Assembly: GCA_030264375.1 (NCBI GenBank) | Contig: JASCQW010000119.1 | Coordinates: 11,007,896 to 11,071,895 of the forward strand | Direction: 5' to 3' | DNA: 64,000 nt | Origin: Carcharhinus longimanus | Lineage: Eukaryota | In this document: piece by piece, positions 2,079-62,146 of the stretch | Layout: every line of letters begins with the position of its first letter | How positions within the stretch are numbered: position 1 is the first letter of the stretch | Program-made: the position numbers and the translations under genes | The notes under the pieces: model-generated | Seen by the model: only the letters and a program-made list of their open reading frames with translations | What the model was told of the DNA's origin: nothing | Databases searched by the model: none

Positions 2079-2114
2079 GTAACAGCCATGGTGACAATAG
2101 CCAGACCGTAACGA
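2079..2114 (+). CDS. 36-nt microexon, (G)NSHGDNSQTVT; non-coil segment before the coiled coil
   Basis: ttttttttctgattttgtattttatag|GTAACAGC...GTAACGA|gtatgt; long pyrimidine tract, open in phase 1. Confidence 0.65.
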
Positions 2115-2961
2115 GTATGTAAATAATCGTTGATATTTATTCATCAATGTCTACTTTTCTCCTTTCCAACTGGGGATTGGAATCCATGTTGACATTTATT
2201 TTCTCATTTCATTGGCGCTGCATTTACCCATACTGCCTGTTTATGCGCATGAATGATATATGCAAACGATCCCTGGAGTAGCTTACGTTTAATTGCCAGC
2301 AACGTTGTTTAGAATTTGAAATCCATGGACAACAAGGTTTGTACGAATGACAAGATTGTGCACATAAATAATGTTCCTTCTTGATTTTTTTTCTATTTGT
2401 TATTGACCGAAATATGTGATTGACATTTACAAAAATGTCAGTTTGTATTCGAGATTGTTTAAAGTGCAACCTGTTGCCAAATTGTTTTCGTGGGATTTCA
2501 CTATTGGACATAGTTGGAAACATAACATGGAGAGTTTCCTATTTCCCAGGACCACATTCTGAGTCTTACTAATATCCTGCTGCAGCAGAGAATCAATGTT
2601 CATCCAAGAAGATTCTGTACCACAAATTTGACAAAACATCTACAACGTCCATATGTCCTCACTTCATGTCTGTGTATGCTGTATAAAAAAAAATGCAACC
2701 ACATTTCCATGATTTTGTAACTACGCCGTCATGTGTCTATTTTCTGGCTGGTTGCTAAAAATTAATAAGTGTTTCTTCTTCTGATAATCCATGGATTTCA
2801 AATACTAAAAACGTTATTGCAATTAATTGTGTTTATGAGCTGATGTTTTCAATTGAGCATCAATCTCCAATATCTATATTATTGTTATCCACCTGGAAGT
2901 AATATATCTGCAGTTGAAGTCTAAAAATTGAAAAATAATTTTAAAAAACCGGCTATTTCGG

Positions 2962-2988
2962 AGGAACAGCTGAAGAAGAAAGATAAAG
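2962..2988 (+). pseudogene. 27-nt exon copy (K)EQLKKKDK with non-canonical splice sites
   Basis: tatttcgg|AGGAACAGCTGAAGAAGAAAGATAAAG|ggggca; 20/27 nt identical to exon 6350; GG at both acceptor and donor. Confidence 0.65.
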
Positions 2989-3101
2989 GGGGCACGTTAA
3001 AATGCACATTTCGTTTTATTCCTCCCATATTCCATATTGCACAAAATTGCTTCATTCGTGGCTTGGAAAGTTGCACACACATTTAGAAGAAAGAATTCCT
3101 C

Positions 3102-3148
3102 CACACACGCACACACACAGACACACACACACACACTCACAGCACACA
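3102..3148. repeat. (CA)n microsatellite
   Basis: cacacacgcacacacacagacacacacacac... Confidence 0.9.
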
Positions 3149-3239
3149 CTGCCACCCAGCTTAGTATCGTCTGAAAACTGGAGATATTGCATTCAATTCC
3201 TTAATACAAATTATTAATGTATATTACGGACAGTTGGGG

Positions 3240-3818
3240 TTACAGCACTGAACCCTGCTGTACCCTCGAGTCACTGCTTGTCACTCTGAAAAGGATCCAT
3301 TTATTCCCACTCTCTGCTTCAGTTTGAGCATAATCTCCCTCCTCTTATATACCAGGCTTGGGCCAAATGTCTTTCTGACCACCTGATTAAGAAACTTATC
3401 AGCCTTGATTGAATGGCAGAGCAGACTCAATGGACTGAATGGCCTAATTCTGCTCCTACATCTGATGGTCTTATGATCTACCTGTCCAGCCTCTTTCACG
3501 GATGTCTGGATGTTGACTCTAGGTTCTCTCTGATCCTCTATAATTCTCAGCATCATTCCCTTGACTGTTCATTCTCTTGTCTTGTCCAATGTCCCAAATT
3601 CATTCTCTCTCACTGCTCCAGATCAAATTCCATAAGCCATTTTTCTGCCCAAGCCCACTGATATCTTCCTGCAGTCCACGGCTTTCTTCTGGATTGTTAA
3701 ACACAAACACAATTGTTGTACCATCTGCAAACTGAATCATAACCCTTACATTTAAGTCTAAGTCATTGATATATACCACAAAACTGTGGAACCTCACTGG
3801 TAACCAGACACTATTCAG
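3240..3818. mobile_element. CR1-like LINE fragments
   Basis: Minus-strand translation YINDLDLNVRVMIQFADGT resembles the RT motif region; a CR1-type 3' tail (gaatggcctaattctgctcct) lies on + near 3410-3480. Confidence 0.65.
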
Positions 3819-4746
3819 NNNNNNNNNNNNNNNNNNNNNNNNNNNNNNNNNNNNNNNNNNNNNNNNNNNNNNNNNNNNNNNNNNNNNNNNNNNNNNNNNN
3901 NNNNNNNNNNNNNNNNNNCAACATGACTGCGCTCTCATGCAAATAGCGTAGAATTTCACTCCACCATTAGAAGCAATGACTTCACCTTACCATAGCCGTT
4001 ATAGCATGTTCCTTTTAATTTTTGAATTTGAGATTTTCCATAAATCCTAAAGTTCTGAATAATCAGAAGTCATCTTTCACAGTTGTTATTTTTTATTATT
4101 AGTTATTTGTGCCCCTTGACACACAATAGGATAATTAAAATTGATAGCCCGATGATGCTTTGCTCTGAATCTTGTAAATTTTACATCGTGATGTGTACAG
4201 TGCATTTGGAGAGATGGCTCGTGCGATCACTTAAGGTATTCTTTGGCCAAAGTGATTACATTGTTTAGCCTAGAAATAATATGGAAATCTAGAATATTAT
4301 AACGTGTAATTCATGCCTTTGCATTTAAGAGATTATATGGAATTCAGACCGGATGGGTAGGGAAAAAACTGGAAGTGTCTGCAAAGCATTCGCATTTATG
4401 ATTTGGATTCAACATTATTGATGGCAATTAAACATTGTAACCACCAAGAGATTAAAATCTGATGCGTCCAATATGTATTACCAAGCAATATCGCCAAATT
4501 GATTTTTTAACTCATCCCATTTTGTCAAAACTTTATTAGTTTCCGAAATCACCTTGCTGTCGAATAAAGAACCCATTCTTCAGTCTCATTGACTTCAATG
4601 GAACTTAATGTTAGGCGTGATGCAAATTGTGTGGCGAATCCCGTTGTACCATGTCAGCTCAAGTTTCCAATCGTGTCAACATTGTACTTTCCATCCCGTT
4701 GCACTCGAATTCTGGAATATCGTTCGTCTTGTTTTTTTTTTCTTAG

Positions 4747-4782
4747 GAATAAAAGAGCTCCAAGAAAATCTATCATTTGCAG
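4747..4782 (+). CDS. 36-nt microexon, (G/R)IKELQENLSFA
   Basis: tttttttttcttag|GAATAAAA...TTTGCAG|gtgaga. Confidence 0.85.
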
Positions 4783-6349
4783 GTGAGAAGGGAGATCAAA
4801 CCGTGGGATTATGCTCTTGAATCGATGCAGGATTCAACACGAATGAGGATAGGAAATCATTTCTAAAGACAATTCTAATTTCCAAACATTGGAAAACCTT
4901 CGATTGGGTATGGCAGGAGATGCAATTCCATGTGTAATGGGTGCATTCATGCACAATTTTATCACTAAAAAGGTACAGCACAGAACATATGAGTATAATT
5001 ATCGCGCTCAGAATTGATTGTTGACAGGATCATAGATTACGACGGCAGTACCCCCTCCTGACCTGAATAACTACGCAACTACCACATGATCATGCTCTCG
5101 AGAAGAGTGGAGTACCAACATTCCAGCTATTTTCGGAAGCAAACCAAGCAATACCCTTCCAAATATGATATGCACCCAAGCAGTTTACGTGAGACAAAAT
5201 CTGAGTCAGCCAGACCACCAGCCTCATTCCATTAATACCACTGAATTATCGCGAGTATGTGCCCTAAATCCAAGAAGCCCCAAATCCCAACTTCCTCCTG
5301 ATAGCTCCAAAGCCGATATGGAATGCTTGGCTGCCTTCTGAAAGAGGACTGAAGTTTCTGACCACAAATCAACTTATCCTCCAACTATACACTGACCCAA
5401 CTGCACATCAAACAATTTCATCCACATCAACTTCCTCCTCAATAACCTGTCCATTCTCACACCATTATATCTGAAGCAATCTACCCAACTATCCAAAATT
5501 CCTGTACCCACTTAAGCATTTCACGGACTTACCTATACACAAAACCCATGTATCTGCGAAGAACAAATTACTGTCCAGGCACCTACCTTGCCACAGAGCT
5601 GACGACAAGCATCACTGAAATACACATGTCCCTACGTAATTCGTTTGTGCAGACATTTACACAATTCAGCCATTCACCCACTCACCCAATAATCCTTCCA
5701 CTCATCTACCGGTAACCCAAGTACAAACTTCATCCATTTACTCAACAACAAAATTAATCCATTTCATCCAACTTCACAAAAACTTAGCCACCTCACCTGC
5801 TCACGCGCTGACTCAGCTTATGTATTTACCCACTTTAGCAGCTTACGCGTCCATCTAATGATCCATCTATTCCATTCAAACATGAATTAATTCATACAAT
5901 CATTCTGTCATTTTTTCAATAAATGGTCCAATGAACATTCACTCGCCCATTCATGAATCTACCCTCAATTACTGGATCTTTAAGATTAAGTTCTTGTCCA
6001 TTTCTAATTTCCATTGAACGTTAGTGGAAAGGGACTGCCTTCGCACCATCGCACTCCATGCCATGTGGTACATTCAAAATGTATCGTAGAGGGGAACAAA
6101 ATTAAACCACACCATCGGAGTGAATGAAGAAGAATCTCGTTTGAAGTTCCAATGCTGTGTGACTGGGAAAAGGTTAGTCAGTGTTCACTTCGAACGTTGT
6201 TCAACTTGTGAAACGGATTATGGATGTTTTATTTCTATCTCATTGGCTGTGCATGCTATTCGGCCTATTGTTTTCAACATAATTTGCTCCAGTTCTCAAT
6301 GTAAATATTTTCTCCCGCTAATATTGCCGTTCTGGCTTGTTTGTCATAG

Positions 6350-6376
6350 AAAAACAACTGGAGAAGAAAACAAAAG
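6350..6376 (+). CDS. 27-nt microexon, (E)KQLEKKTK
   Basis: cttgtttgtcatag|AAAAACAA...CAAAAG|gtaagg. Confidence 0.88.
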
Positions 6377-6962
6377 GTAAGGGTGTCAAATGCGGAAATG
6401 CATGTTTTAACTGTCGATAAGCCGAAAAGAAAACATGCATTTCTTATGCCCGTCGTATAATTTCACGTTCATTTTTTTTAAAACTGGTTAACATTCGAGT
6501 GTTTCCATTCTATTTATATATGTTTGAGTGCAGCTTTTCAATATTAATTTCACATTAACACATTCTACTAGCATGTCTTTATAATACCATAAGCCTTTTT
6601 TTTCTCCTCGATGTCATTACTGACACACCCTTTGTCTTAGAACCAGGGCGATTTGGTCACTCTTGCCTTTGCTCCGACCAATCTATGACTGACTATTCTG
6701 TCCCACTGTCTCCAGCACCTCTCCAATTACAATTCTTCCCCTATTTAATTTCCAAAGATGAGTCCCATGAACAGGAAATGTTCAATCGTGTTCCATTTCC
6801 ACAGATTCTGCATTAAAAATAGGCCATCTAAACTCAAAATAACCTATTAAACCAGCAACATACCGTCATGTCCAGCAAGTACCCGCACCCACACGATCAT
6901 TTTTTGTCAATTAGCAAGACAATGGGTGCTTTCGATGAAGATATCCCAGGAGGTAGAAGAAA

Positions 6963-7306
6963 GGGCGGCACGGTAGCACAGTGGTTAGCACTGCTGCTTC
7001 ACAGCTCCAGGGTTCTGGGTTCGATTCCCTGCTTGGCCACTGTCTGTGCGGCGTTTGCACATTCTCCTCGTGTCTGCGTGGGTTTCCTCCGGGTGCTCGG
7101 GTTTCCTCCCACAGTCCAAAGATGTGCAAGTTAGGTTGATTGGCCATGCTAAGGAATTGTTCCTTAGTGTCCAGGGATACGAAGGTTAGAGGGATTAGTG
7201 GGTAAGTATGTAGGGATTTGTGGGTAGGGCCTGGGTGGAATTGTGTTCGGTGCAGACTCGATGGGCCGAAGGGCCTCTTTCTGCACTGTAAAGTTCTAAG
7301 TTCTAA
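6963..7306 (+). mobile_element. HE1-type elasmobranch SINE, near full length
   Basis: tRNA-like head with A box (tagcacagtggt) and B box (ggttcgattcc), body gtctgcgtgggtttcctccggg, LINE-derived tail ending in gttctaa repeats. Confidence 0.9.
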
Positions 7307-8865
7307 TATATTGCCTCCTTTGAAATGAGTCACAGTGTTAAGCTCGCCAAATAAATCGCCCCTGAAACTTCGCTATATTGTGCTGTGACGTGTGACACAG
7401 TATATCACCAAGTCAAATGAGGAGTACCTTAATTTGTGCTCCGAACCTAAGTGGCTCCTCCATAGCCCCCTGTAACTTCTTGGGCTTTGCTATCTATTTC
7501 TAGATGCGATCCTTCAGCCGGGAGCGTGGTCTTTTTTTATATTTGATATAAAATCGGTGAGGCTGCCAGCATATCAATTTTATGAAATTTTTCAATTCCC
7601 TCAATCAATAGCGAAATGAGATGTTTTATATTCATTGAAAAATAGGAAGTTGCAGTAGAAAATAATGCAAATTATCCAGTCCCACCTCTGCAGACTTTTC
7701 CAAAATTCAGGTGTGCTTAATTTTTTCAGCCATAAATGCAGAACCCCTCATGCACGGCTGCTAGCATATGTCTTGTCCACAACCCACTAAGTACATTACA
7801 GTGAAATATGCTTAGAACTTTCAACTGTCATACAGAGTCGAATGATGTCCTCAAGGTAATTTGTGAATGATTTTCAATCCGTGGTCATTAGGATTTGGTC
7901 TTCGATACCTTCTCACCTTGAATTCAAGTGCTTGATGTCATGTAACCTTGTTAATTCCAAGGATTGAAATTCCATGGTTTCACAATTCTTCGTCTTGACT
8001 TTATTCCTTATTCATGCTAATATACTCATAGACATTCTCATAATTGCGCCTTAGATATTTAAAGTCCCGGGACGTTGGCGCCTCTGCCTGAGTGTGCCAG
8101 CCATTATCCAGCAACCGTTATTCTCGAAACACGTTTCGAAATGGAGTACCTTCTTTCAATAACTTTGTATTTGCACACCAATTTCTGTCTGTTCGTTCAC
8201 AATTTTCGACGCCATGCCCTGTATAGCAGATTGTCGTCCATAATAATTCACCAAAATTTCACAGGATCACATAATGTATGTCAGAAGGAGTTGTGGGCCA
8301 GCCAGCTTTAATTATCAAGTGGTCACACGGTGAAGCCTTCCATTGTTTGCTGGAGCAGACGAGTGAAGGAGCAGAGNNNNNNNNNNNNNNNNNNNNNNNN
8401 NNNNNNNNNNNNNNNNNNNNNNNNNNNNNNNNNNNNNNNNNNNNNNNNNNNNNNNNNNNNNNNNNNNNNNNNNNNNTGAGCAGCCATGATGGCGATGAAT
8501 GGCGGAGCAGGCTGTAAGGGCCGAATGGCCTCCGATCTTCGTTACCCATCGAGTAACGATGGGTCATTGAGTCCACGACCTGACCTGCGGGAAGCTTCGC
8601 CAGGGAATTTTTGACAGCTGTGTTGCCAATCCTTGCCCGCAGGGGGTGCCACAGTTGCCACTCCATCCTCCACCACTTATCGAACCTCAGTTAGGCCGCA
8701 CTTGGAATTTAGTGTTCAATTCTGCTTGCCACAACGCCAGGAGGATGTGGAGAGGGTACAGAGACGATTTACCAGGATGTTGCCCTGGTACGGCGAGCAT
8801 TAGCTAGGAGGAGAGGCTGGAGAAACTCGGTTTGTTCTCACTGGAGGTTGAGAGGGCGAAATCTA

Positions 8866-9285
8866 GATCATAGATCATAGAATCCCTACAGTGCAGGAAG
8901 AGGCCCAACGGGTCCGCACCGAACACAATCCCACCCAGGCCTATACACCCATATGGGGTGGCACGGTAGCACAGTGGGTTCGCACTGCTGCTTCACAGCT
9001 CCAGGGTCCCGGGTTCGATTCCCGGCTTGGGTCCCTGCCTGTGTGGAGTCTGCACATTCTCCTCGTGTCTGCGTGGGTTTCCTCCCAGAGTCCAAAGATG
9101 TGCGGGTGAGGTTGATTGGTCATGCTAAAATTTTCCTTTAGTGTCCTGAGATGCATAGATTAGAGGGATTCGTGGGTAAAATATGTAGGGACATGGGGGT
9201 AAGGCCTGAGTGGAATTGTGATCGGTAAAGACTGGATGGCCTAAATGGCCTTTTCTTCTCTGTAGGCATTCTGTGATTCTATGAT
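8866..9285. mobile_element. HE1-type SINE (+, about 8955-9285) preceded by an inverted 3' fragment (-, about 8866-8950)
   Basis: Close similarity to the 6963 copy; atcatagaatccctacagtgcag is the reverse complement of the SINE tail. Confidence 0.85.
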
Positions 9286-9724
9286 ACGTCTAATGCCACA
9301 GCTTTTAGAAAACAATATTGTTACCGACACACAGTGAAGCTACTGAGACTGCTCAGTTTCCAAACGTCTCAAAAGCCCATCGTTTTATTTGCTACATAGT
9401 CCATTTATTATTCTTATCGTAATTCTACGTTTTAGTCTGTTAATTTCTTCTCCATATGCCTTTGGCATTGTTTTCGAAGGTCATCAGGAAGTGAACGTTT
9501 GAAGTATCTGGCTCATATTATTTTTCTGATTTATTATCAAATGATTCAATCAATTTCAGAGACGTTATTTGCGTTTACAAATCTGTGTACATGCTGATAG
9601 ACTCACAATTCGTTCTTCCAGCAATTGGACTTCCTTCCGTTTAACATGCTGTAAGGCATCAGTTATTTGCACTCTGTCACAAGATGGACTATCCGCACCT
9701 AGTAAAACCCAAATGCCGTTGTAG

Positions 9725-9760
9725 AACTTGAAGAGAAGACAGAAGCTCTTGGAGAAACAG
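9725..9760 (+). CDS. 36-nt microexon, (E)LEEKTEALGET
   Basis: gccgttgtag|AACTTGAA...GAAACAG|gtgagg; 23/36 nt identical to exon 17431. Confidence 0.85.
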
Positions 9761-10179
9761 GTGAGGGACATAATGCAAATTGTGAAAAAAAAATCGCCAT
9801 CTGCAAATTGGATTTCCTGTATTTGGGAGATGTGATCATTCATTGTATACTGCTTCCATCGAAAATAAAAATGGTCAAGGTGTACAATTTGAGAGAAGAC
9901 GTAACAATATTGGCAGATAAAACCAAATGAAAGCCAAAGATGTTTTACCGGTACGTTAAAAGCAGTACAAAGTAGGCACTACTAAGGGAGAGGTAGGGAC
10001 TACCAGCGATATGCATGCAAAATCAGGAATTGATTCAGAAACTGTGAGCAGGATTTTCAACCATGAGGGTTCTCGATATCGAGGGTAGTCAGACTGGAAG
10101 GAGAGGGAAGATTCAGGCATCCCAGTGACAGACTGGTAATCTGAAAAAATATGGACAAAATGCACAGTGAGAGAGGAAG

Positions 10180-11050
10180 TACAGGAAGCTAGCTTCCTTG
10201 AAGGTGTACAAATTACGAAGGTCAGATGCATTTTCTGTTGTCAGATTACACCAAGGAAGAGATCGAGAATGCCCTGAACATGATGTCCTTATTCTGAATA
10301 TTTCCAGGTACTTTACCAGAGTATTCACAACGTGCAAATTTGTAACACTATTTCAACACAGAGGAAATGATAGGACAGGAAACCGTAGATCTGTCATGTT
10401 GATTTCAGTGATGGAAGTTTACTGAAGACAATTCTGACAGACAGGTTGAATTGTCACTTTGAAAGGTGCAGATTGATCAGGAATAGACAGCATGGTTCGT
10501 TTGGGGATGATCATGTCTTACGGACCTAATAGAGATTTTTGAGGAAGTAACACCAAATATTGATCAGGGTAATGCAGAGTGCATTATCTACTCCGATTTT
10601 AGCAAGAGATCTGACAAGGTTTCACATAGCCAAACGGCCAAATGGTGAGATATAGGGGAAGGTGGCAGTTTGGGTTCAAAATTGGTGTATCTAAAGGGAA
10701 GAATCTAAGCGGGACTTTACATGCCCGACCCGAAAAAGGAAAATCCCGCTCCAAGGCAATGGCTCATCCATTGTAAGCCTCTTGCCCGTTCCGATTCTAC
10801 AGTGGGTGGGGCAGTTGAATTCTGGCGAAAGTGTCCGCTGATGTTTTTGCAAATATAAAACAGCTGGGATCTATGTTAATTGTTGTGTAAATTAATGAGT
10901 TAGATTGAACTGAGGAACTTGTGCATGATACAAAATAATCACTACACCGTCGATAGGGAAGAAGATAGTTTTCGATTCTTGAATTGTTTCAATGGTTTAA
11001 TCAATGGAATTTAACCCAAAAAAAACTGAGGCAAATCAACGAAATGATAC
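10180..11050 (+). mobile_element. Decayed CR1 LINE ORF2 with a nested MITE-like insert (about 10705-10830)
   Basis: Remnants matching GNYRPVSL, QHGF, SCLTNL and DFSKAFDKV; many stops and frameshifts. Confidence 0.7.
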
Positions 11051-13091
11051 AGAGTGCTTTCGAAGCTTCGATTGCACATACATAATTCTAATAAAAAATT
11101 TGTGTACATTCATTTTTGAAACATAAAGTGCAAGCAATCTGCAACATGGAACCGTCAAAAGCCATTGAACACCTAATAAATATTTCAGCATTCGATTAGT
11201 TCATTAGAGATCGCAAACATAACTCAAATTATTTGCTTCCACACAATATTATACCAACATGAAACAAAATGCTTAGTTCTACTTCTCCGAAGCACAATTT
11301 ATACCTTATTCCAAGGTTCTTGCGGTAGAAAGTGTAGAACCGTTCGGAGTTCTGCTCTCATTCGTGTCAGGAAGTTATTTCCTCTGTCTTCCTGAACTGT
11401 CGACTGGTTGTTCAAGGTAACAGTCCCCGTTATTGTTTCCTCCTACGGAAATGTTTGAATATCTCGATGATATCACTCACGAGTCCTTCACAATTAGTGG
11501 ATTGGAAAGGATTTTTTTTCTGCAAGATGTTTTACTACCTTCAGCAAAACATTGTCGATATTATCCGTGAGCTCAGATGGAGATGATCAATTCCTCATTC
11601 AAGGTAAACTTGACCAAACAAAACAGAAACAAAAATTGTGTACCCCCATAACTACGGAGAGCTTTAATTCTGCCTAGTCCACAACCTTCCCTTTCACGTT
11701 CGATTAGATAAATTATGAAACATTGCCACCGTGTTCTGGAATATAGACCTTTCCAGAGAACATCAGGATAGAATTTATTTTTCGGTAGCATTGACAATGT
11801 ATCTCTGTATTGCTGCGGAAGATATAATCAGTTCAGTGAATGTGTGAATTGAACATTCAATATGCTGAATAAAGATGAACGTGGATGGTTCACATGTCGG
11901 TTTCAAGGTCCTGATGAAAGCAACATTTGCTTCTGTTTCATTATTCAGTCATGGCAAATGGGCGTTGCTGGTTCGGCCAAATTTAATGTGCATCACTAAT
12001 TGTCCTTCTGAAGATTGTGGTGAGCTCCATTCTTAAATAGTTACAATCCGTATAGTGTTGGAAGACATAGAGTGCTACTACATATGAAGCATAGAACGTG
12101 CTTTCCTAGACTGCAAAACGATAACCGTGTTACTCCAATTTCTGCCGAAATGATGGAGGAAATATTTCTCATCACAATTAAATTGTGCTGCAGAAATATG
12201 TAAAACATCTGAGAATCAAATAGCACAATTCTATGTGTTTCACAAGAATTTAGCAACAAACAGAAAACAATAAAGTAAGGCCTATGATTTCGAAATGAGG
12301 GAGAGATATCTAATAAACTGCCTTGCATTACACGCTGATTCTCAATTTCGTCACGCATTCAATACCATTGACTTCAACTGTTTGAATGCAGGTCCTTGAT
12401 GAGGCACGTCAGTAAGTTGTCCATCCTGCTTTGTACACGCATGCAAAAGCTAACATGCAAACCTCTTGTATGGGCAGTTTACTAACGAGAATCACAATGC
12501 AAGTATGTACGAGAAAGAACGAGCATGCAGAACAGCAGGTTTCCTTGTATTTCTACCACATTCTCCCTCAAACACTATGATTTCGCCATTTCCTCACAGT
12601 CTAAAAGCACTCCTGAATCTTGCGCCCAACGAAGACAAGCCAGGCGACTAGTTTGGTATCACATCCACCAACAATGCATCCTGTCACCACTTTTCACAGA
12701 ATGCAGTGCAGGAAAGCACCACAGTTCCTTAGGCAGTATTATCCAAACCCATGGTCCTGTACAACGATGGAGCATTGACTGGAATTTATGCTCCAAAACA
12801 TTCAACATCCTGATTTGCAAATATATTCCTTCACAATTTGTTGAGTCAAAATCCTGAAACTCTCCCCCAAACAACTTGGCGGAAGTACCTACACTACTTG
12901 GAATGCAGATCGTCACTACATTCTCAAAGGAAATTAGGGATGGACAATAAATGTTGACCAAACCACCAAGGCACAAACACTTTGAATGAATACAAGCAAT
13001 ATTGAAAAGGGCGTGTGCATTTTCCTTTAGAATACTGTACTCAATGTCTCTTTCTTAAGCCATATCTTACATTCGCCATTTACACCTGCAG

Positions 13092-13118
13092 CACAAAACC
13101 TACTCAAGAAAGACAAAG
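13092..13118 (+). CDS. 27-nt microexon, (A)QNLLKKDK
   Basis: catttacacctgcag|CACAAAAC...GACAAAG|gtaaca. Confidence 0.85.
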
Positions 13119-13289
13119 GTAACATCATTATGTTATTAAAAAATGTATCTCCAAAAACATTCAGATTTGATAGAAGCATTTCCCGTTGCTGCTGCTCAAG
13201 AAAGTGCCCATCATTAATTTTAAATAATGCCCTGCCTCGGTTTTAGCAAAGGATTGAGGCATTATTCAGTTAGAAGTTCGTTTCTGTCT

Positions 13290-13520
13290 ACGGAAGGAAT
13301 TCTCCCAAACCGCTATTCCCGTCACCCTGCACATTTCACATGATAGGTTTACCTAATTATTACACATCTTTGGACATTAAGGGCTATCCATCATGGTCAA
13401 TCCACCAAACAATTTGGAGCGCATGAAACCGATGGAACCCCTCTCAGACAAGGTGCAAATTCTGCACTAACAGCCAGCAGAATCGAACTGGGGTCTTGGT
13501 ATTGACAGGCAGTCTTATAA
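13290..13520 (-). mobile_element. Degenerate HE1-type SINE
   Basis: Reverse-strand similarity to the other copies (acatctttggac, gaatcgaac, gacaggcagt). Confidence 0.55.
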
Positions 13521-16160: not shown

Positions 16161-16177
16161 ATATCGGACAAGAAGTT

Positions 16178-16430
16178 GGGGCGACATGGTGGCACAGTGG
16201 TTAGCACTTCTGCCTCACTGCGCCAGGGATGGCTGACTGTGTGGAGTTTCTCCATTCTCTAAGTTTCCGTATAGGTCTCGTGCTGGAACTCCGGTTACCT
16301 GCCACAGTCCAAAAATGCGCAGGTTAACTGACTTGATCATGGTAAATGCCACTGAGTCGAGCAAAATGCGCATGATTACGAGAAGACACCCTGGGTCAGA
16401 TACTCTGCCAAGTAGTCGGTTTCTATGACT
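16178..16430 (+). mobile_element. HE1-related SINE, internally deleted
   Basis: gggcgacatggtggcacagtggttagcacttctgcctcac head. Confidence 0.7.
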
Positions 16431-25681: not shown

Positions 25682-25687
25682 GTAAGT

Positions 25688-50709: not shown

Positions 50710-51295
50710 GAGCCCCTTCAATGCAGAAGGAAGATGTATCCCATCGAGTCCACACTGTCTCTCCAACAGAACGTCCAACCAAGGTCCAATCCCGCCTTAT
50801 ACCAATTACCCAAGTATGTACCATACCAATCACTCTAATCTGTGCACCTTGGACACGAGGAGCGAATTTAGTATGACTGCTGGACCTAACCTGCACATCT
50901 TTGGACTTTGGGCAGAACTCAGGGCACCCAGAGGATATCCATGCAGGCATGGAGGGAAAGTGCAAACTCCAGACAGTCAGTCACCTAGGACGGAATTGAA
51001 CCGCCGTATGGAAGCAATTCCATCTGCTGTTTTGGTCGCCGTACTTACGCAAGGATATTTTGGCCTTGGAGGGAGTGCAGAGGAGGTTTACTCGGCTGAT
51101 ACCGGAGTTGAGGGGGTTGNNNNNNNNNNNNNNNNNNNNNNNNNNNNNNNNNNNNNNNNNNNNNNNNNNNNNNNNNNNNNNNNNNNNNNNNNNNNNNNNN
51201 NNNNNNNNNNNNNNNNNNNTTGAATGGCGGGGCAGGCTCGAAGGGCTGGATGGCCTACTCCTGCTCCTATTTCTTATGTTCTTATATTCTTATGT
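50710..51295. mobile_element. HE1-type SINE (-, about 50710-51003) joined to a CR1 3' end (+, about 51008-51295, spanning the gap)
   Basis: ctgcacatctttggact; ALEGVQRRFTRLIPELRGL; tail gatggcctactcctgctcctatttcttatg. Confidence 0.8.
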
Positions 51296-52663
51296 TACGA
51301 GTGTGAAGAACGTTGAAGATCAGGGCCTCAGACCCAGCAGATGGCTCCTGATCGACAGAGCAGTAGTGATGCATGCCTTTCTGTAGGACTCAGGTATATC
51401 TGCAAAGCACAGAAGGCACTCAAAACCCTGGAGAAGCAGTACCAGCACATTCTCCCCATGGTCAGGAATATCTATTCACAGAATAGGCGCGCTTATTCCG
51501 GTTTCTCACTCAGTCCAGCAACCCCAGCACTGCGGTATTGACAATGCTCAATCAGCTCTGCTAGACATGACAAATCGTCTGCATGCTTCACACAGAACTT
51601 TCACAGTTGGTACCTGTCTCAGAGATTTCGGAGGGCAAATGAGCTAAAAGAAGGTAGCAGAAAAACTTCAAGGACACATTCAACTCCCCTTGAAATAGTG
51701 CAACATCACAACAGACACCTGTGAATTCGAGTTCCAAGACCATCTATGCGGAAGGGAAAGCAATGAGAAAGAAACCGAGTACTTTATGTTTCATTGCCTA
51801 AAGCGCCTAAATGACAGGCGCGCCTGCGGGAATCCCATGTACCTTTTCCTCCGACTATCGGTTCTTCTGCGATCGAGATGATAGGCTCCGTGCTTGACTC
51901 TTCCTTCACCTGAGAATTCATTTTCATTGTGGAAAGTCATTCTCGACTTCAAGAGACTGTCCAAGAAAGGGAAAAAGAATCATAGCGGAGTGTCCCTGAA
52001 GCAGCATTCAATATGCATGTTTTATTATAATGTTCACATTGTTCATTCCAGCTGGAACATCTCTATTTTAATAGCTTACAATAACAGGAGGTTCCCGCAA
52101 TAATTTTTTTTCTTGCCCGCATTAGAGTTGTTTGGATACGTGCTACAAGGTTGTCCCCTTTCTCTAGGCAGTCTGTAACTGGCGTCATAGTCTTACACTA
52201 AGGTTCTAGCTATTGAATGCTGGAACATGGACAACGTTATTCGCCTGGTGAGTTATTGCCCCTTCGGAATTCTCCACACAACAGGATTTTGTACTATCTG
52301 ACTGTGAAAGAACGACAGATTTCTATGTGCTTAAACTATTTAAGTAAATTCGCGATTATGCCGAATTACGCCTAAAGATCACTCTTGGCCGTATTGAATG
52401 ATGGATCAGTAACGAAAAGTTGGTTGTTACGCTTTATTCCGTTGTTCATTTTTTTGCTTGTTTGTTTTTGTATTTGTTACCCTCTTATTTGCTTACGATA
52501 AACAATCGCGAGGATTATTGATTTTATTATTGAAACATGAGGTCATTCGATCCCATTGTCACAGTGCTGGTTTTCTGAATGAGACAATCATTTCAAACCA
52601 CTCCAATTTCTACTCACATTGGACGAAACCTCCTTCCTTTTCAGATATAAAGCCAATTGTCAC

Positions 52664-52805
52664 AGATAAAAGCAAAATACTACGGATGCTGGAATATGAG
52701 AGAAAAACAGCAAAATGGTGGAAAATCTCAGCAGGTCTGCCAGCATCTGTGGAGAGAGAGTAGAGCCAAGCTTTTGAGTCTAGAGATGACCCTTCGTCAC
52801 AGCTG
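52664..52805 (-). repeat. Single Penelope-type terminal repeat
   Basis: aaaagcaaaatactacggatgctgga...ctcagcaggtctgccagcatctgtggagagaga...gatgacccttcgtca. Confidence 0.7.
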
Positions 52806-53244
52806 AGAAGAAAGAGTCAGCCGAGCTTTATACAATGTGATTAGGGAGGGGTGTTGGAATTGCACAAAGTGAATATAAATGAGCATGTAGAATGCTGATA
52901 AGGTGTTGAAAGTTTCCATTAAGGGATCAGAGTGGGTTAATGGCAAAACAAAGTTGCAGCTTGATAAAGGACTGTCTACGTAGTGTGGTACTTAACCTGA
53001 AGAAGGGACGTAGGATGGAAAGAAGGAGGATGATAAAATGGAGAATGGGATCAAATGTAAAGTAATCCAATTACCATTTGAATAAATCGAGTGAACCAAA
53101 CTTCACCGCGACATTTTTGGAAGACATTTGACCTATTCAACCCTTCACTGCGTGGAAGTTTTTTTATTCACATGTCTGCATTGCTGATTTGGTAATTAAA
53201 TTACACCTGCACACCTTTGTTTTCGATTCTTCCACTGGTGGTAC

Positions 53245-53602
53245 AGGACAACACGGTCGAACAGTGTTGGCATTGTTGCTTCAGGGCGCCAGGGACCCGC
53301 GTTCAATCCTGCCTTCAGCAACTGTATGGATTTTGAATGTTGTTGCCCTGAGTCTCCTCCTGATGCTTCCGTTCTCACTGTAACTTTCCTCCGGATGCTC
53401 GTGTTTTCTATAGTCCAAAGGTGTACAAACTGGTTGGATTAGCCATGCTAAACTGCCTTTCAGCGTCCGAAAATTGTAGATTAGGGGATTTAGCTTTGGA
53501 TAAAACCTGAGTAGAGCTGTATTGAAGGGTCTGTGCAGATTCAAAGGACTAAATAGCCCCTCCTTTTATGTGTGTGTGTGTGTGTGTGTGTATTTATATA
53601 TA
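53245..53602 (+). mobile_element. Degenerate HE1-type SINE followed by (TG)n/(TA)n
   Basis: Head and tail similarity to the other copies; tgtgtg run at about 53568-53592. Confidence 0.65.
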
Positions 53603-53905
53603 CATATCCCCACGGCCTTCCCTCATTGATATTTTTGCACTTGCATCTTCTTTTTCTGATGAGACTGCTGTGAGGATATTTCATCACGTGCTATTATTTA
53701 ACTATTGGTTAAACGTTGACCAGTAGTGTAATAGCCCCAGTATGACCAGTTCGTTTAGGTCACAAATCAACTTGGCGCTGTCATCATGTTATCCGGAAGT
53801 TCGCTTTTCAATATGCATGGCTTGCTTACTTGAATTTCCTTACTTTGTCCGATTATGCTTTTTTTCCTGTATTTCAATGTGATGTCACCCATGTTTTGTT
53901 TTCAG

Positions 53906-53941
53906 AGCTGGAAGCTTTGCAGAAGAAAATTAATGAGTTAG
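53906..53941 (+). CDS. 36-nt microexon, (E)LEALQKKINEL
   Basis: gttttgttttcag|AGCTGGAA...GAGTTAG|gtgagt. Confidence 0.92.
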   Translation, partial: SWKLCRRKLMS

Positions 53942-55970
53942 GTGAGTTGCTGGATCTGTACACTATTGGAAATCATACCTTGCCGTTCAATCACCCACCA
54001 CGCAGACTTGGAAACATATCGGCCGTTCTTTCATTGCTCCTGGACCAATATCCTGCAACTTCCTTCATTGCAGCAATCTGTGTGCGCCTACATTTTAGGG
54101 ATTGCACTTCGCGAAGGCATCTCAGCACCAATTTCTCAAGGGTTTGTCAGGATGGACAAAAAATGCTTGTCAACCAGCGAGCCCCACATCCCATCAATTG
54201 CTGTTGCGTTTGGAATGACTACTGCACAGTATGCCGTTGTGGCATTGTGTTTTTGTCGGAAAAGAAGGCGACACTCAATTTGTTTTTCCTTCATGTTCCC
54301 AATACAGTGAGAAAGATCACATATTAGCTAAATAAAATACATTTTGAAACATGTGACAATGTATTTAACCCCATCTCCATGTCTCAATCATTCATCCCTT
54401 TATCGTTGAAATCTATAATGAAACCTCGAGGAATCTAACGTTAATGCTTCCCCTATATTATGTTGCCTGTTATTATTGCGATTTTTTGCATTCCTTTATT
54501 AGTGACCACACTTAAAAAAGAGCGGCCATTCATCCACCCTCACGTTAAGCCACTAGATCCGATCTGATTCGGCGATTGGTAGAACAACCGGATCAAATCT
54601 TTCTTTCGTGGCGCTCAGCGATTTTTAAAGTCATTTGCGAGGCACTTACTTGCGCATAGGCAGCGAATTCAACGCCATGTCCGCATTGAACATACGTCCT
54701 TATTTTACAAATTAACAGAACAAAAGCTAAAGGCTGGTGAGAACAGAATTGTAATTTCTTTCAGTCCAGCATACTTACTGTTTGTTTGTATATATTGTTG
54801 TTTTCCTTCTACTGCCTTTTTGCTCTCCTTTTTAGACCCTATCAAAAACACTACGTCGTTGTCAAAACTAAGGAAAACTTATTTAAAGTTTGATATATTG
54901 TTGGAAAGTTTTTTTTCAAAGGAGGACAGTGAAACATACATGTTTGAACAGATGGATNNNNNNNNNNNNNNNNNNNNNNNNNNNNNNNNNNNNNNNNNNN
55001 NNNNNNNNNNNNNNNNNNNNNNNNNNNNNNNNNNNNNNNNNNNNNNNNNNNNNNNNNATACATGTTTGAACAGATGGATGGGTTAAGAATGTTGTACTAA
55101 CGACATAATCCAGATATTCGCAGTGTTCACTCTGGAATTTCAAATCTAGATCCCTTCCTTACGCTCCCATGAAGTAACTTCCGCCATTTTGTCGACGTCT
55201 ACGAATGCAATTTTATAGAGGAACTCAAAGCGCAAAGACAAACAGACACTTGTACCGCTTAATTTGAGAAGTATTATTTGCTGGTTATTATGGTGTGCCG
55301 GGCTAACAATGTCTCAGATCAGAGTTGAATGTGATCACCCATCCACAGAGGTCGCGGTTAACATGCATCGATCTCCTTATTTGAAAATGGAAATTTACCA
55401 TGACTTTTAACCGCAAGCAACAAGGTCAAATCTGATCCAGAAATCTATGGTTTCGAATCACGCTCTGGCGACTTCGGGCAATAAGGCAGGTTGACTTTTC
55501 CAGTCCGATACTGCGAAAGGAGTGTTGTATTCTCGGAGATGTCTTCAATCGGATTTAGCATCGGATTTAGTTTCAGACTACGAATCATTGGGAGTACCCT
55601 CTGACTTTGATGTTCCTGGTAGCCTGCGCCGATATACAGCTGCAATTGAAACTGCACACTTAAACCAGCTGATTAAGATGCTGTGCTGTTTTCTGAATAC
55701 TGTGATAAGCCGATTGGCTACCTCTTTTTGGTACATGACACCTGCGTCTGCATTTAAAACAACGAATCCATTGACTGTTACGAGGAGATTAATGCCAATT
55801 TATAAAATAAGATTTATGTTAGTTCTTGCCTTCTCGACCATCAATTTATGCGGTCTTTGTTATTGATATTATTTTCTGACGATCTGCAACTTGCGCCCGC
55901 AGCAGTGTGATAATTAAAATGCCACAATCTGTGCTGTTTAAAAATATTCACGTTTGTATAATTTAAACAG

Positions 55971-55997
55971 ACGAAATAAGTCTTGAGAAAATGAGAG
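55971..55997 (+). CDS. 27-nt microexon, (D)EISLEKMR
   Basis: tttgtataatttaaacag|ACGAAATA...ATGAGAG|gtatgt; completes a 21-aa module with exon 53906. Confidence 0.78.
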
Positions 55998-56214
55998 GTA
56001 TGTGTTTCTTGTACATTTTTCATGTTTAAATTTCCAATGGAGAGCGAGAGTGATTGATTGTTTCAGAGCAGGAAGGCAGCAATGGAAATAAATGATCAAA
56101 ATGTGCAATTATTGCACGTACATCTGTTTCTTTTTTTTGTCGATAGTTAAATCCAGGACTGCGCTCCTGATCGATAGCAAAAAGCATTTCAATTAAGATA
56201 AGAACTTTGGAACT

Positions 56215-57880
56215 TCCCAGGGTGGGAATGTTAATTTCTACGGGACGTGCGATTAAGGTAAAAGGAGGAAAGTTTAAAGGAGTTGTGAGAGATTTTCTCT
56301 TTTGCGCAGAGTTTGTTAAGTACTTACAACGCAATGTCAGAGGAGATGGTACAAACAGATACAAATGCAATGTTTAAGAAGCATTTTTTTCCAGTACATG
56401 AATGAGGGAATAGTAGGAATCATATGGAGGCAAAATCTACTTAGTTCAGAGAGGCGTCACTTGCGGGCACAGGTTTGGTGGGCCGCAGGGACTAACCCTG
56501 TCCTCGTGCTCTGTTCTACTATCCATTCGACGGCAGGGCCTGGTGCGTATAGGAATAGGAAAAGCATCTTGACCGGGAAGATTGGGATGTGGGTCATGAA
56601 AAAAAAACTCCATCAGTTTCTCAAAAAATGTGGGTTGCACTCTCACTGTTTTATCCCCTTTCCCTTGGAAAAATCCTTTATATATTGTACAAAACTCCCT
56701 TTAGTAAAGTGATATCTGAAATATGTTGACATACTTTCAAACAAAAAGTTCCCTGTACACAACAAAGATAAAAATATGAATATCCCACCAAGAAACATTG
56801 CGAATTCGATTGTATTCTTCTGGCCATGTTGATGCGGAAAGCAACTTCCACACCCAGTCCATGAAGTTCCGTCTCGATTTGAATAGACATCGATTTTGAA
56901 AAATGACACACAAGTCTGTATAAAAAGAAACTGAGAATCCTGGGTAAGAACGGTTTATCCAAATCGACATTAAAACAAAACGGCATGACTGAAAACAGCG
57001 AATCGTGGCAAATGTTCATTCTGAAGCTTTATTCGAATGCTACCAAATTTGGAGGAGGGAAAGCAGTGAGAATTGTTCAATTCGTCTCTCATATAGTATA
57101 TAAACTAACAGACGGGTCGTCAAGCACCAGAAATATAGTCATATAGAAAAGTGCATTTGATCTGTCATGCATTTTGACAGAAGGGATATAGAAAGCAACA
57201 TAACTTTAATAGCAGAGTAGCATTGAGCATGCAAGAGCTGACAGAAACAAGCGAGCAGGGACATCGATCTGTGAAGATGGCAGACTAATTTGACAGTAAG
57301 TAGCAACGTTATGATCAGGGGCATTACGCATTAAACAAAGGAATTTATGGTGCACCATTCGAGAAATCTGGCCAGGCCCCAATTGGAGCATTGTGTCTAG
57401 TATCGAGCACCACATTGTGGAAGTATGTGAACGTCCTCGAGAGCGTGCAAAAGAATACCAGAGAGGTTCCAAGGCTGGAGCGCTTTGGTTCAGAGTTAGG
57501 TTATAAAAGACGGGATTGCATCTGTTTGCAGTAAAGAGTAATGACAGAAGATCCCGCAGAAATACAGGAGATTTTGACGGATGTTGATGAAATATGTTTC
57601 CGACTGAATGATATCACGTGGGCAAGCAGAAGCCGACCTAACAGTTCGGCGCGTAACGCAGGGAGATTCGAGGACATTTCTGCCTTCCTTAATCAATGAG
57701 TGGTAATGGGGGTGGTAGAAGAGGAGTGGTGAGCTGGTGATGGGCGACTTGTGAATGAAATGATCAGCCCTTACAGGAACGAACACTGCTGGCCTTTGAG
57801 AAGGTCAAAAGCACTGACCCGATTCATCTGTGGAGAGCCGACATTGACTCAATTGCCTAAATGTCGCCTTTCTCTTGCAA
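56215..57880 (+). mobile_element. Decayed CR1 3' fragments (about 56215-56520 and 57040-57880)
   Basis: aaggtaaaaggaggaaagtttaaagg; ggccccaattggagcattgtgt (RPQLEHCV); gagcgtgcaaaaga. Confidence 0.6.
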
Positions 57881-58657
57881 GAAATACTATATCATTTCGG
57901 TCAACTTAATTTTTAATCTTCTCTGTTTGAAAGAGTAGAATCCGAGTTTTTGTAAACTCTCGAGATGGTAGAAGTCTCTTGTCAAGTATTGGAAGTAATC
58001 TCGGACTCCCGTGTGTGTGTGAATTTTCTCTCCCAGATATACAGTTTTGTAGCTTGCCTTGTGCAACAGTGTGGAGTTTTGAAATCGGTTGATATATGTG
58101 ATCGCCAACGAATTGCCTGTTTGGATCCCGTCCGATTTTCTTTTCACGAGAATTTAACGGAAAACTATTTGGAATAATGATAATGAATGCATGAACATAC
58201 TGAAACACAGTGTAGACAGTGCAAAATTGTTTCTTCCCATTAGCCGGTAATGCATTGACAAATGGACGCAGATTTAAGGTTTTAAGAGATATAGGCGCGC
58301 ATATACACACATATTGAAAAATGACTTTACATTTAATGCATGCATTCTTAAAAAAAAGGTCATGGAGAACGTGTATGGCGGCTGCGTACTATATTCCAAT
58401 GTCCAATCGGACTGAAAAATCGGCACTGTCAATAAAAAAAACCATAATGTGCTATCTGAGATTCATTTCACCCCTTGAAAATGTATCGAAAGTTCAATAG
58501 TTATGACTGTGTGTGATACAACGGACTTTTTTCTTTACACTGGTGCTGCTGGTACACTTGTCACTTGTTAGATCACGATCCAGCAATTAATACGACGAAA
58601 GGTATACACAAGTGGTAAATTTTCGTAATCGAGTTTTTTTTTCTACTTATTTCACAG

Positions 58658-58693
58658 AGTTAGAGAAACTGAGGACGGACAGCCTAGCTTTAG
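58658..58693 (+). CDS. 36-nt microexon, (E)LEKLRTDSLAL
   Basis: ttttttctacttatttcacag|AGTTAGAG...GCTTTAG|gttagt. Confidence 0.88.
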
Positions 58694-61447
58694 GTTAGTA
58701 AACACTGTGGATCTTTGTTCGCGTTTGCAACTCCCACACCCACTCTCCTCCCCACTCCCACCTCCACTCGCTGCAACGTATTCACGTTTTTCCTGTCTTC
58801 TTGATATTGTTTTTATTTTGGTTTCGTTCAGCCGTAGAAGGGGGGCTTGTCTGCAACCTGCATTTAACTCATCGAAATCATCCTCGCGAAATCAACAGCG
58901 TTATGGTGATCACTAATCTTACCATTAATGTCACCATCACCAAAATATTTCAGGCTGCAGTGCCTTAATGGCACGCCTTCAGCTTGCTTCACTGTTTATT
59001 CCTTCGAAAACGATGTCGTTAGGCATGCATGTTGTGCATTACAAATGTGGACTTTTGATTGTAAAACCATTGCAGACATACTCATCAGGAACAGCATCAT
59101 AATTAACTGCAAATTATTCAGAACTTCTTGTTGCCAGTTTCTGAACATATTTATAGATTATAAACTAATTCTGGCTTTGTCAGAGACTCTCAGATACCAA
59201 CAATAAATTACAAAAGAAAGTGACGGAACAAAGTTTGAAATGTGTGTGCTCCAAGTGGAAATCTGTCACGCGAGCATGAATGGGCTTGAGGAACGGAAGA
59301 AAACTAGGTAAATGAAAATGTATGTTACATCTGCAATGTTTATACGTACAACGATGAGAGGCCAGTAAATTAATACAAACCACATAACTATATCTGCATT
59401 TCATTTCGCACGCGGCTGCACACGAGGACTCATCGGATAATTGCAATGCCTATATGGTTGACAACGGCGGGGCAAGCTGCTGGAAACACAAACTGATTAT
59501 TGGACTGTACAAACTACGAATTCTCCGATGTGAGCAAGACAGGAGAATTTAGCGCTCAATCAAATCTCCATTCATAGCAAAGTCCAAAGAATCACAGCCG
59601 CAGATAATGGTATGAAATGCTGGTCAAAATTAACTAGTCGAGAAAGGAAAGGATATACTGAATCTTCATTAAACATTCTACTGCCCAGTTGGCCGAATAT
59701 TGGTTTTGAAGTTCTGTTCTCCACAGGTTACATCTGGCTGCACCTTAAAAGAGGCGCTAAGCGTCACCAGAAACATTATCTCAGGCATTGCGCAGGAATA
59801 TCCTTGAAAGTTCAAACTTTGGTTGCTAATAATTTTGCACAGAAAGTTATGGATAATGTGATCTAAATTGGCGACTTCGATCCAATCACTTAGCAACAGA
59901 GTTAGGAAGTGTTACAATGCAGGGGTTGATCTCTGTTTGAGGCATAATGCTGAATCCTCCAAAGAGGAACTGGTCATCTCATAATCTTTTAAAAGTGTAC
60001 GGAAAGGTGAACTGTCCTTCAATACTTTTTATTGGTTAACGAATAGAAATACCTGACACTCACTTTAAAATGAACATTTAACTTCTTTAAGGGAACTTTA
60101 ACTAAACAAAGAACATATCGAATAAGATTCAAACATAATTATGTTCAAATAAATGCAATGCCCATTCATTAATATAAAAAATACAATAATAGAAATTAGT
60201 CACTCTGAAGAAAATATATACAACCAAGATTTATGTTTTTCGGAACTTCCTGGAGTACCATAGTTGATTTCACTGTGTCTACGTTCTTTCTGATTTGGTA
60301 CATTTCACTGGTTAGATGGCGTACTGTCTTAAGAGATATCTGAAGCTGGCAGAGTGGACAGCTGCTGTCTCCCTCTCCAGACTTGAGACGTGGAAGTTGC
60401 TATGTCTTGTTCCCCCCGCCCCTTACATTTTATTTTATACCTCTGCTGACATATCAATTTCTCTACAGTAGGATTGGCATGATTTTCTCAACATTATCAC
60501 ATTCAAATATTACAGGTTCGTGGTAGCTTTGTGCCTGCTTCAAACTGATTGGGCGATTAAAAAAAACAAGACAAATTGTCTTGCTATTGCTTGACTTTTG
60601 ATGCAAATGTTTCAGCTTGGATTCTGTATGCTTTGCATTTTAAGCCTCCAAGCTCTGAAACAAACACTAGTTTTTAAAGGGACCATGCAATGTTTTTCGT
60701 ATCTCTCCTCCAGCATGTTCCAATTCTTTACACTTTTTAATATCAAATTGCAACTTCACAAATTTAATTTAGCCACAGCAGGCAAATTCGGAAGTATTAA
60801 AACCCCTTATGAGTAATTATTTCGAAGCGACCACTGAACCAATACCATCTCCAAATATTAAGCCCCAGAATACGCCAATCCACAGAATGCGTTGTCAACA
60901 ATACCGCCAACTAACACGCAATCAGGCACCCGGACTACCCGCCCTATTACATGCAGGACAAACAACATACGCAGAGAACTCCTGATCCCAAAAATTACCC
61001 CAATGCCATAACAACATCTCACTACCTTTTAAAACACCTTCTTCCGAAAACTCTGCGCCCCGACTACCCTATAAATAACAGGCAACGCACCCAACATCGC
61101 CAGGACCCGACCTGGGCAAATTACCCTCCATCCACAGCTGCAATTAACTCGTATCTCCCTTCAACGCCAGACCTGATAGCACGCGTAAGATACAGTGGCT
61201 TCCGCACAATTTTCGCTCTACTGCACAAGGTAGATTTTGACATTTGCATTGTGGTAACTTCCGATTTGAATTTGAGGTTTGAACATAAATATTCTAAACT
61301 CGGGTATACCGAAATAATGTATGAACATCTGGTGAAGAGAAGTAAATAATTGCTTTAACGGAATCACAGGACCAGAAAAACAAAGCGCGGAAGGAGGCCG
61401 GATCTCCCAAATTTAAACGTGTTTGCTTTTTTTGAAATAGTACAAAG

Positions 61448-61572
61448 GGCAGAATTTTAACGGCACGTATGTCCACGTTTCGTACGATACCGCTCGAGGC
61501 CAATGGAGAATGCTGTTCTCCAAGCCCGGCCCGTCCACGGAATCAGACGGCGGTGACAGTACAATTCCAGCC
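61448..61572. mobile_element. Short MITE-like element
   Basis: Imperfect terminal inverted repeats ggcagaattt ... aattccagcc; resembles the insert at about 10705-10830. Confidence 0.55.
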
Positions 61573-62119
61573 AAGGTATTGGAGTTTGGCCTGAGACATG
61601 CAAGTCATTTATTCCAATGGGACATACCTAATAGCTTTGCACAATATTCAATCGCATCTGATGCCACGCACTGATGTTGCTAAATCTTTGTCTTCTTGCA
61701 TCAGTGTAATGAAATTATCATGCAACCATTTATCGCTTTCTTGCGGATCAAGCTACACTGTCATACTCATTGCTACGTATGTCAATCTACTCCGCAATCC
61801 CTCTCAACAATGTCCAACTTGTATCTTCCCGAAACGAAGCAATCAGCCTGCTGCACTTAAGAAGAGATTTTCGTACTTCATAATGACTTCATTATTTCAA
61901 TTGTTCATAACGATTTAGAAATCTGATGGTCCCAGATATTTCTTTCAAGCATCAATATCAATTTGCCCTAACGCCTTCAATGTATGAATTCCGTCACCAG
62001 TAGGTAACTGCTGCAAATATTTGCATTCAACCTATGATAACAGCGGATAAATTCAGAGGCACAACTGTTCATTCATTTTGAATAAATGTGCAATCATCGT
62101 TTAAATATTCTTTGAACAG

Positions 62120-62146
62120 AAGTGACGTTCAATCAGAAACTGAAGG
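62120..62146 (+). CDS. 27-nt microexon, (E)VTFNQKLK
   Basis: tattctttgaacag|AAGTGACG...CTGAAGG|gtgagt; similar acceptor context (aacag) and terminal K-hydrophobic-K/R to exon 55971. Confidence 0.8.

Follow-up and report, generated by a model that had tools for sequence, protein, structure and literature searches.

What gene do the tiny exon-like segments in this stretch of shark DNA belong to? The window, a 64,000-nt stretch of the Carcharhinus longimanus assembly GCA_030264375.1 (contig JASCQW010000119.1; G000:C119:11007896-11071895), was reported in a preliminary description to contain 18 AG/GT-bounded exons of 36 or 27 nt, together 558 nt, which encode a modular coiled coil. We found that these segments look like exons of a predicted microexon gene, designated gene B, whose chain ends in a B30.2 exon; the coil-B30.2 architecture is real and unusual. 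The window is probably the middle of one very large gene, at least 550 kb long, that encodes a cytosolic rod made of a microexon-coded coil of ~1,200 residues and a terminal B30.2 domain.

Raw AG-(27 or 36)-GT matches were uninformative, because the window contains 440 on the + strand and 406 on the - strand. Segments of 9-150 nt with strong splice sites were counted by length, with a rough splice-site score whose weights were taken from general knowledge. On the + strand the two commonest lengths were 27 nt (n = 7) and 36 nt (n = 6), followed by n = 4; on the - strand the largest count for any length was 4, with no peak at 27 or 36 nt. A splice and peptide model, for which 111 exons from beyond the window served as the training set, returned 14 window exons on the + strand at a score of at least 5 and none among 2,913 - strand candidates over the 814 kb examined. 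At a cut of at least 2.5, chosen post hoc once the first list was known, 16 phase 1-1 exons of 27 or 36 nt were found on the + strand and none on the - strand, and 100 shuffled sequences gave a mean of 0.25 and a maximum of 2; these are the controls that the preliminary description had proposed. Splice sites alone gave 12 exons on the + strand and none on the - strand (shuffles: mean 0.55, maximum 4). Tandem-repeat and open reading frame scans of the window revealed no feature that explains the series. The 27- and 36-nt segments look like genuine exons from the middle of a larger gene. It is scarcely credible that they are chance matches, repeat-derived segments or a CD23-like lectin stalk: the similar raw counts on the two strands and two candidates inside repeats would fit such an origin, but the strand and shuffle contrast and the closing of the chain in a B30.2 exon do not, and long-exon scans gave no recognizable C-type lectin exon, though no search was aimed at such exons.

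Sixteen of the 18 exons described earlier were thus reproduced (Table 1), and a seventeenth, at 2079-2114, is plausible. These 17 exons total 531 nt, all have AG/GT borders, and they join in phase 1-1 without a stop. The last exon before the window is a coil exon, and the one at 2079-2114 comes directly after it, in the kind of position that other non-coil exons occupy. The eighteenth exon, of 27 nt, could not be identified among poor candidates. That at 7175 was rejected because it lies inside a dispersed repeat (30 matches); that at 37794, with its copy near 38899, was rejected for a weak donor at 37794 and a local 310-bp duplication.

Gene B runs from -274 kb to +278 kb relative to the window start and comprises 119 predicted exons over ~550 kb, about nine times the size of the 60-kb segment first proposed. 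There are 71 exons of 27 nt and 48 of 36 nt (3,645 nt in total; median intron 3.6 kb), a count that under-represents hinge exons with a different composition or length. Coding sequence occupies ~0.7% of the 550 kb, nearly all of its exons being 27 or 36 nt long. When the 119 exons were joined, no stop was encountered. The two lengths alternate 75 times, against 57 +/- 5 expected, and none of 5,000 shuffles reached 75. The chain halts at the B30.2 exon, beyond which the best + strand microexon candidate scores just 3.0. Within the 814 kb examined there are two B30.2 exons in all, each of which closes a microexon chain.

The terminal exon of gene B has an intact reading frame and matches Pfam SPRY above the cut-off (1.6e-15). 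Its best PDB match is the B30.2 domain of BTN3A1 (2.8e-24), and pyrin and TRIM21 are also matched. The butyrophilin/BG lead of the preliminary description was right in so far as the chain closes in B30.2, and its CD23/C-type lectin lead is unsupported because the terminal exon encodes B30.2. No Pfam PRY match was obtained for the gene B domain, and none for seven relatives, compared with 7/7 controls; the PRY region of gene B nonetheless aligns to BTN3A1 from residue 2. An AlphaFold model of the ray orthologue (predicted local distance difference test, pLDDT, 75) starts with a 60-residue helix, which a low-confidence linker connects to a short helix and a B30.2 sandwich, in which the PRY region folds as strands; its top Foldseek match is to butyrophilin (BTN) intracellular domains. 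The acceptor of the terminal exon is followed by a second in-frame CAG 6 nt downstream (L048:6439-6446).

The B30.2 exon lacks a stop and is 71% and 52% identical to its catshark and ray orthologues, respectively. Throughout the chain, exon length, phase and pattern persist while the exon flanks share no similarity, which indicates long selection. Both observations argue against gene B being a decaying or untranslated relic of a coil-B30.2 gene, which is very improbable even though it is known from genomic prediction alone, some of its splice sites are weak, and several expected partner exons are absent from the chain.

The preliminary description placed hydrophobic residues at positions 2, 5, 9, 12 and 16 of every 21-residue module encoded by a 36+27 pair, with an invariant Lys at position 19. 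In the six adjacent 36+27 modules of the window, whose peptides were read by eye, hydrophobic residues occupy position 2 in 6/6, positions 5 and 9 in 5/6 each, position 12 in 2/6 (plus one Ala) and position 16 in 4/6, so that the claim for every module was overstated. Across the 37 modules of gene B the corresponding counts are 35, 29, 34, 14 (plus 11 Ala) and 31, with a dominant period of 3.5; these heptad counts are partly circular because the exons were picked by a peptide model, the seed of which used splice score and E/K/Q content alone and ignored hydrophobicity. Lys19 is present in 6/6 window modules and in 25/37 gene-wide, and so is not invariant. These positions fall on a/d sites in three heptads; one core site carries small residues and a second carries Lys.

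The coil is not uniform. Runs of non-coil 27-nt exons recur in gene B behind a class of exons ending in Cys, and they may serve as hinges. In the Callorhinchus relative XP_042192744 (P0099), residues ~897-1025 form a long run of 9-residue Pro/Thr/Gly-rich repeats within the coil, which suggests expanded hinge exons. It had been proposed that coil length is tuned by in-frame exon skipping. All 7,021 pairwise skip junctions of gene B are stop-free. However, skipping a lone exon keeps the frame but shifts the heptad register, because 9 and 12 residues are not multiples of 7; since 9 + 12 = 21, register is preserved solely by skipping a pair or a hinge exon. RefSeq isoforms of the relatives, which are predictions and were compared by eye, gain or lose one unit of 6 or 9 residues at a time; of four such differences three are hinge-like and one adjoins the B30.2 domain.

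Among the closest database proteins, those with a named source all come from chondrichthyans, and their names are automatic ones such as 'TRIM39-like', 'TRIM69-like' and 'zinc-binding protein A33-like'; a poorly annotated cartilaginous-fish gene of symmetric microexons, as first suggested, is borne out. Two relatives combine a coil with a family B30.2 domain at length: XP_042192744 ('nuclear-pore anchor-like', 1,697 aa) and XP_038671249 of Scyliorhinus (945 aa). In a tree of 55 B30.2 domains, 19 family rows, drawn from this genome and from database proteins of sharks, rays and chimaera, were separated with 100/100 support from the remaining rows (14 BTN-type, 22 TRIM-type); the tree is unrooted, its labels were assigned by motif, its family rows were picked by similarity, and isoforms were omitted. 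S. torazame GCB75680 and Narcine XP_069797409 share a branch with gene B (100/99); these orthologues are annotated as pieces of 172-289 aa. Units of 9 and 12 aa are present in XP_042192744, XP_038671249 and XP_069797409. When six family proteins were parsed into such units, z was 12.6, 8.0, 4.9, 4.2, 2.9 and 1.5, and z did not exceed 2.1 in 16 controls, all TRIM/BTN-type, with generic long coils such as myosin and tropomyosin not among them.

When long orthologues (302-2,000 aa) were sought with the one B30.2 sequence as query, 16 proteins were returned, none in the family; a profile search returned 16 proteins, two being family members. Atlas look-alikes (scores 0.76-0.93) include chordate clusters of SPRY proteins of 1,277-1,802 aa with generic names, so the coil-B30.2 architecture may reach beyond cartilaginous fishes. 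A protein named 'zinc-binding protein A33-like' (A0A401NX33), a candidate relative by its name, appears in a shark skin proteomics list (PMC10707392). The literature covered, with subscription papers outside it, held no description of a coil-B30.2 microexon family.

Eight family B30.2 exons were found in the C. longimanus genome. Seven score above 125 bits, six on the window's contig and one on contig C81 (79 matches among 150 scored), and the eighth lies at C81:91.99 Mb. On unplaced contigs no further family-type B30.2 was found, the best match reaching 104.7 bits compared with 129-156 for the paralogs. In five other paralogs, 10-40 kb of each being examined, phase-1 candidates of 27/36 nt and also 21/33 nt lie upstream of the B30.2 exon. 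The claim of only two exon lengths is accordingly true of the window and fails in the paralogs, which show exons of 21, 24, 30, 33 and 48 nt. Across 80 kb on the upstream side of the paralog at C81:91.99 Mb, catshark XP_038671249 was matched by 33/294 sense and 1/212 antisense candidates; 15 candidates are collinear with it, and in nine pairs of neighbours the matches adjoin at a spacing of exactly 9 or 12 residues. The paralog at C81:94.27 Mb gave 8/109 sense and 3/89 antisense matches, with four abutting pairs. These results indicated that microexon prediction of this type picks up conserved exons which had been joined in order by an independent annotation.

Two arrangements of family members were observed besides. 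Two family B30.2 exons, at G000:C119:9018204 (+) and 9085615 (-), face each other 67 kb apart, and at G000:C81:84.5-102 Mb B30.2 exons, two of them family members, are densely clustered on one contig with major histocompatibility complex (MHC) class I exons.

The second B30.2 exon within the examined interval (G000:C119:10681089-10681568, -326.8 kb) is 38% identical to that of gene B and ends a separate chain. This tandem paralog, gene A (L062-L069), has a 36/27 chain that persists to the edge of the examined region. It also contains a recent internal duplication of ~3 kb, 88-90% identical, bearing one 36-nt and one 27-nt exon. Since the family is tandemly duplicated here, the 550-kb chain could represent two or more genes, with the window exons ending in a B30.2 or other terminal exon hidden in a gap, or belonging to a coil-only gene. 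Of the 22 N-gaps of at least 500 nt between the two B30.2 exons, eight lie between the window and the gene B B30.2 exon, and the database orthologues are short. We consider such a division quite unlikely, as the chain goes on at similar exon spacing, the relatives of 945 and 1,697 aa show that long versions exist, and the unplaced contigs yielded no additional family-type domain.

The domain content of the family was assessed next to that of the locus. Searches of the flanks, suggested in the preliminary description, led to the B30.2 exon, but to no immunoglobulin (Ig) exon between the two B30.2 exons, gaps excepted (motif scans, and tblastn queried with 193 proteins, of which 17 carry an Ig-like motif), and to no convincing signal-peptide or transmembrane (TM) exon at the gene B locus. 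Neither an Ig Pfam domain nor a RING or B-box was present in the seven family proteins scanned, and no intact RING/B-box exon was found at the locus, where a single match (E 0.001) was interrupted by a stop. Six of eight family proteins lack a hydrophobic segment. The Ig and TM negatives, and the separate branch of the family from the BTN-type rows, make it unlikely that gene B encodes a membrane-anchored butyrophilin/BG-type protein, with the coil as a giant cytoplasmic tail behind a TM segment, with or without Ig, whose exons fall in gaps or were missed. That alternative draws on the best PDB and Foldseek matches, on the two paralogs that share a contig with the MHC class I cluster, and on heptad microexons followed by B30.2, the layout given for butyrophilin tails in PMC5938342.

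Several points weigh against a single, cytosolic gene B, in addition to the partly circular heptad counts and the narrow set of parsing controls. XP_042192744 (1.59) and XP_055510696 of Leucoraja (1.48) have a marginally hydrophobic N-terminal stretch, and the N-gaps, some near the 5' end of gene B, may conceal an exon of the terminal, Ig or TM kind. At that 5' end, first exons of the ATG/hydrophobic type or of another were scanned for and none was convincing, and short-word tblastn with the relatives gave noisy output and no convincing match; the first detected exon carries an in-frame ATG, which is a lead only. The exon chain is a genomic prediction throughout, and at least one of its 119 exons, that at 251904, lies within a repeat and is probably a false call. 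No database protein covers the window exons. The joined chain matches only XP_038671249, at 37 bits, a likeness by class only because shuffles of exon order reach 24-44 bits.

On balance we favor one large gene B. Some 115-120 symmetric phase-1 microexons, mostly alternating between 36 and 27 nt, would be spliced into an E/K/L-rich heptad coil of ~1,200 residues, broken by short hinge exons and followed by the B30.2 exon, if all predicted exons join in one mRNA. The product would be cytosolic and would oligomerize as a parallel coiled coil, probably as a dimer. Given a rise of 0.15 nm per residue, the rod could measure up to ~180 nm if unbroken. B30.2 heads at one end may bind a protein or small-molecule target, and the rod may space or tether them; rod oligomerization and head spacing are suggested by analogy with BTN tails and the BG 'zipper protein'. 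The small and Lys core residues may make the rod flexible, and splicing out 21-aa exon pairs or hinge exons could vary its length.

The family is possibly, though doubtfully at present, a third, chondrichthyan arm of B30.2 proteins beside the TRIMs and butyrophilins that predates the split of sharks and chimaeras. Its RING-less, Ig-less rods would be encoded by half-megabase genes in which more than 100 interchangeable microexons, arranged in register-keeping pairs and hinge units, yield many rod lengths and bends that place a recognition domain, possibly for cytosolic immune sensing. As a gene structure, gene B represents an extreme vertebrate architecture and accounts for a group of shark gene models that are fragmentary and misnamed. 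For B30.2 biology, a multi-copy family that chimaera, rays and sharks have all kept, and that has two members on the MHC contig, bears on the origins of TRIMs, butyrophilins and BG. For splicing, it offers a natural test of the constraint that coiled-coil register puts on microexon skipping.

Other features of the window were recorded alongside the exons. A 310-bp local duplication (37538-37845 / 38642-38949, 92% identical) has a weak 27-nt AG/GT segment in each copy. A single-copy candidate of 18 nt, in phase 1-1 and followed by a good donor, lies at 54719-54736 between two accepted exons. Copies of a dispersed ~330-bp repeat, a source of false microexon calls that may be a short interspersed nuclear element, occur at 6963-7295, 8956-9286, 29620-29940, 32895-34021 and 47334-47521. 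Downstream of gene B, a neighbouring gene was looked for and none was identifiable.

Table 1 Predicted features of gene B in and beyond the window (window positions unless a contig is named; scores are from the splice and peptide model unless a donor is named).
Feature	Position	Strand	Basis
Whole window, inside predicted gene B	1..64000	+	microexon chain extends on both sides
Possible 36-nt hinge (non-coil) exon, uncertain	2079..2114	+	AG/GT; open in phase 1; weak donor 0.8; under model cut; single-copy
36-nt phase 1-1 coil exon	4747..4782	+	score 27.0
27-nt phase 1-1 coil exon	6350..6376	+	score 25.8
36-nt phase 1-1 coil exon	9725..9760	+	score 17.7
27-nt phase 1-1 coil exon	13092..13118	+	score 15.9
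36-nt phase 1-1 coil exon	17431..17466	+	score 14.8
36-nt phase 1-1 coil exon	23979..24014	+	score 16.0
27-nt phase 1-1 coil exon	24238..24264	+	score 23.3
27-nt phase 1-1 exon, acidic, hinge-like; weakest of 16	28053..28079	+	score 2.7; single-copy
36-nt phase 1-1 coil exon	31262..31297	+	score 14.4
27-nt phase 1-1 coil exon	41291..41317	+	score 26.3
27-nt phase 1-1 exon, recurring Cys-ending class (final A, gtaagt donor)	43123..43149	+	score 8.1; class at 4 upstream positions
27-nt phase 1-1 exon	46026..46052	+	score 23.6
36-nt phase 1-1 coil exon	53906..53941	+	score 30.8
27-nt phase 1-1 exon	55971..55997	+	score 3.8; single-copy
36-nt phase 1-1 coil exon	58658..58693	+	score 18.2
27-nt phase 1-1 coil exon	62120..62146	+	score 7.5
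Terminal B30.2 exon of gene B	G000:C119:11288334-11288854 (L048:6439-6959), ~216 kb beyond window end	+	phase-1 acceptor, 172 aa, stop codon

Among known systems, the butyrophilins BTN3A1 and BTN2A1 share with gene B a heptad coil followed by a C-terminal B30.2 domain, and they give the best sequence and fold match among solved structures. In contrast to butyrophilins, which have IgV/IgC and TM segments, gene B has ~1,200 coil residues with no IgV/IgC or TM found, and the family B30.2 domain is divergent, fails Pfam PRY and lies on a separate branch. Butyrophilin tails are described in PMC5938342 as having only a few heptads. Butyrophilins have been reported in cartilaginous fishes, near the MHC in several (PMC12841164). 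Small symmetric exons encode heptads in butyrophilin and BG genes as in gene B, which uses 36/27 nt instead of 21. In chicken BG, as outlined in PMC5938342, the long coiled-coil tail is encoded by series of tiny exons whose first codons are split, true heptads straddle exon borders, and splicing is alternative; the same outline gives 27-38 exons of 21 nt, or in some cases 18 or 24, with IgV and TM, and sets BG against the B30.2-ending BTNs. Twelve BG genes fit within 99 kb (PMC4046983). Gene B differs from chicken BG in its 36+27-nt units, its more than 115 exons over 550 kb and its B30.2 end.

The 21-aa repeat of gene B is divided over two exons, and its terminal exon encodes B30.2. In the CD23 stalk, by comparison, one 63-nt exon encodes each 21-aa repeat, and a C-type lectin domain lies at the C terminus. 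TRIMs of the TRIM39, TRIM21 and pyrin type resemble gene B in a coil followed by B30.2 and in the 27-nt phase-1 exon that precedes the terminal exon in the TRIM/BTN layout; the family differs from them in the absence of RING and B-box and in a far longer, microexon-built coil. Enterophilins of guinea-pig enterocytes are cytosolic proteins with an extended leucine-zipper/heptad region and a C-terminal B30.2 domain; they are mammalian and far shorter than gene B. Gene B, as far as it has been traced, may match their architecture of an extended heptad region plus B30.2 without Ig, TM or RING. An interaction between enterophilin-1 and SNX1 is listed in a review (PMC13749957). Taken together, the predicted product of gene B would resemble a butyrophilin/BG tail or an enterophilin and is identified as neither.

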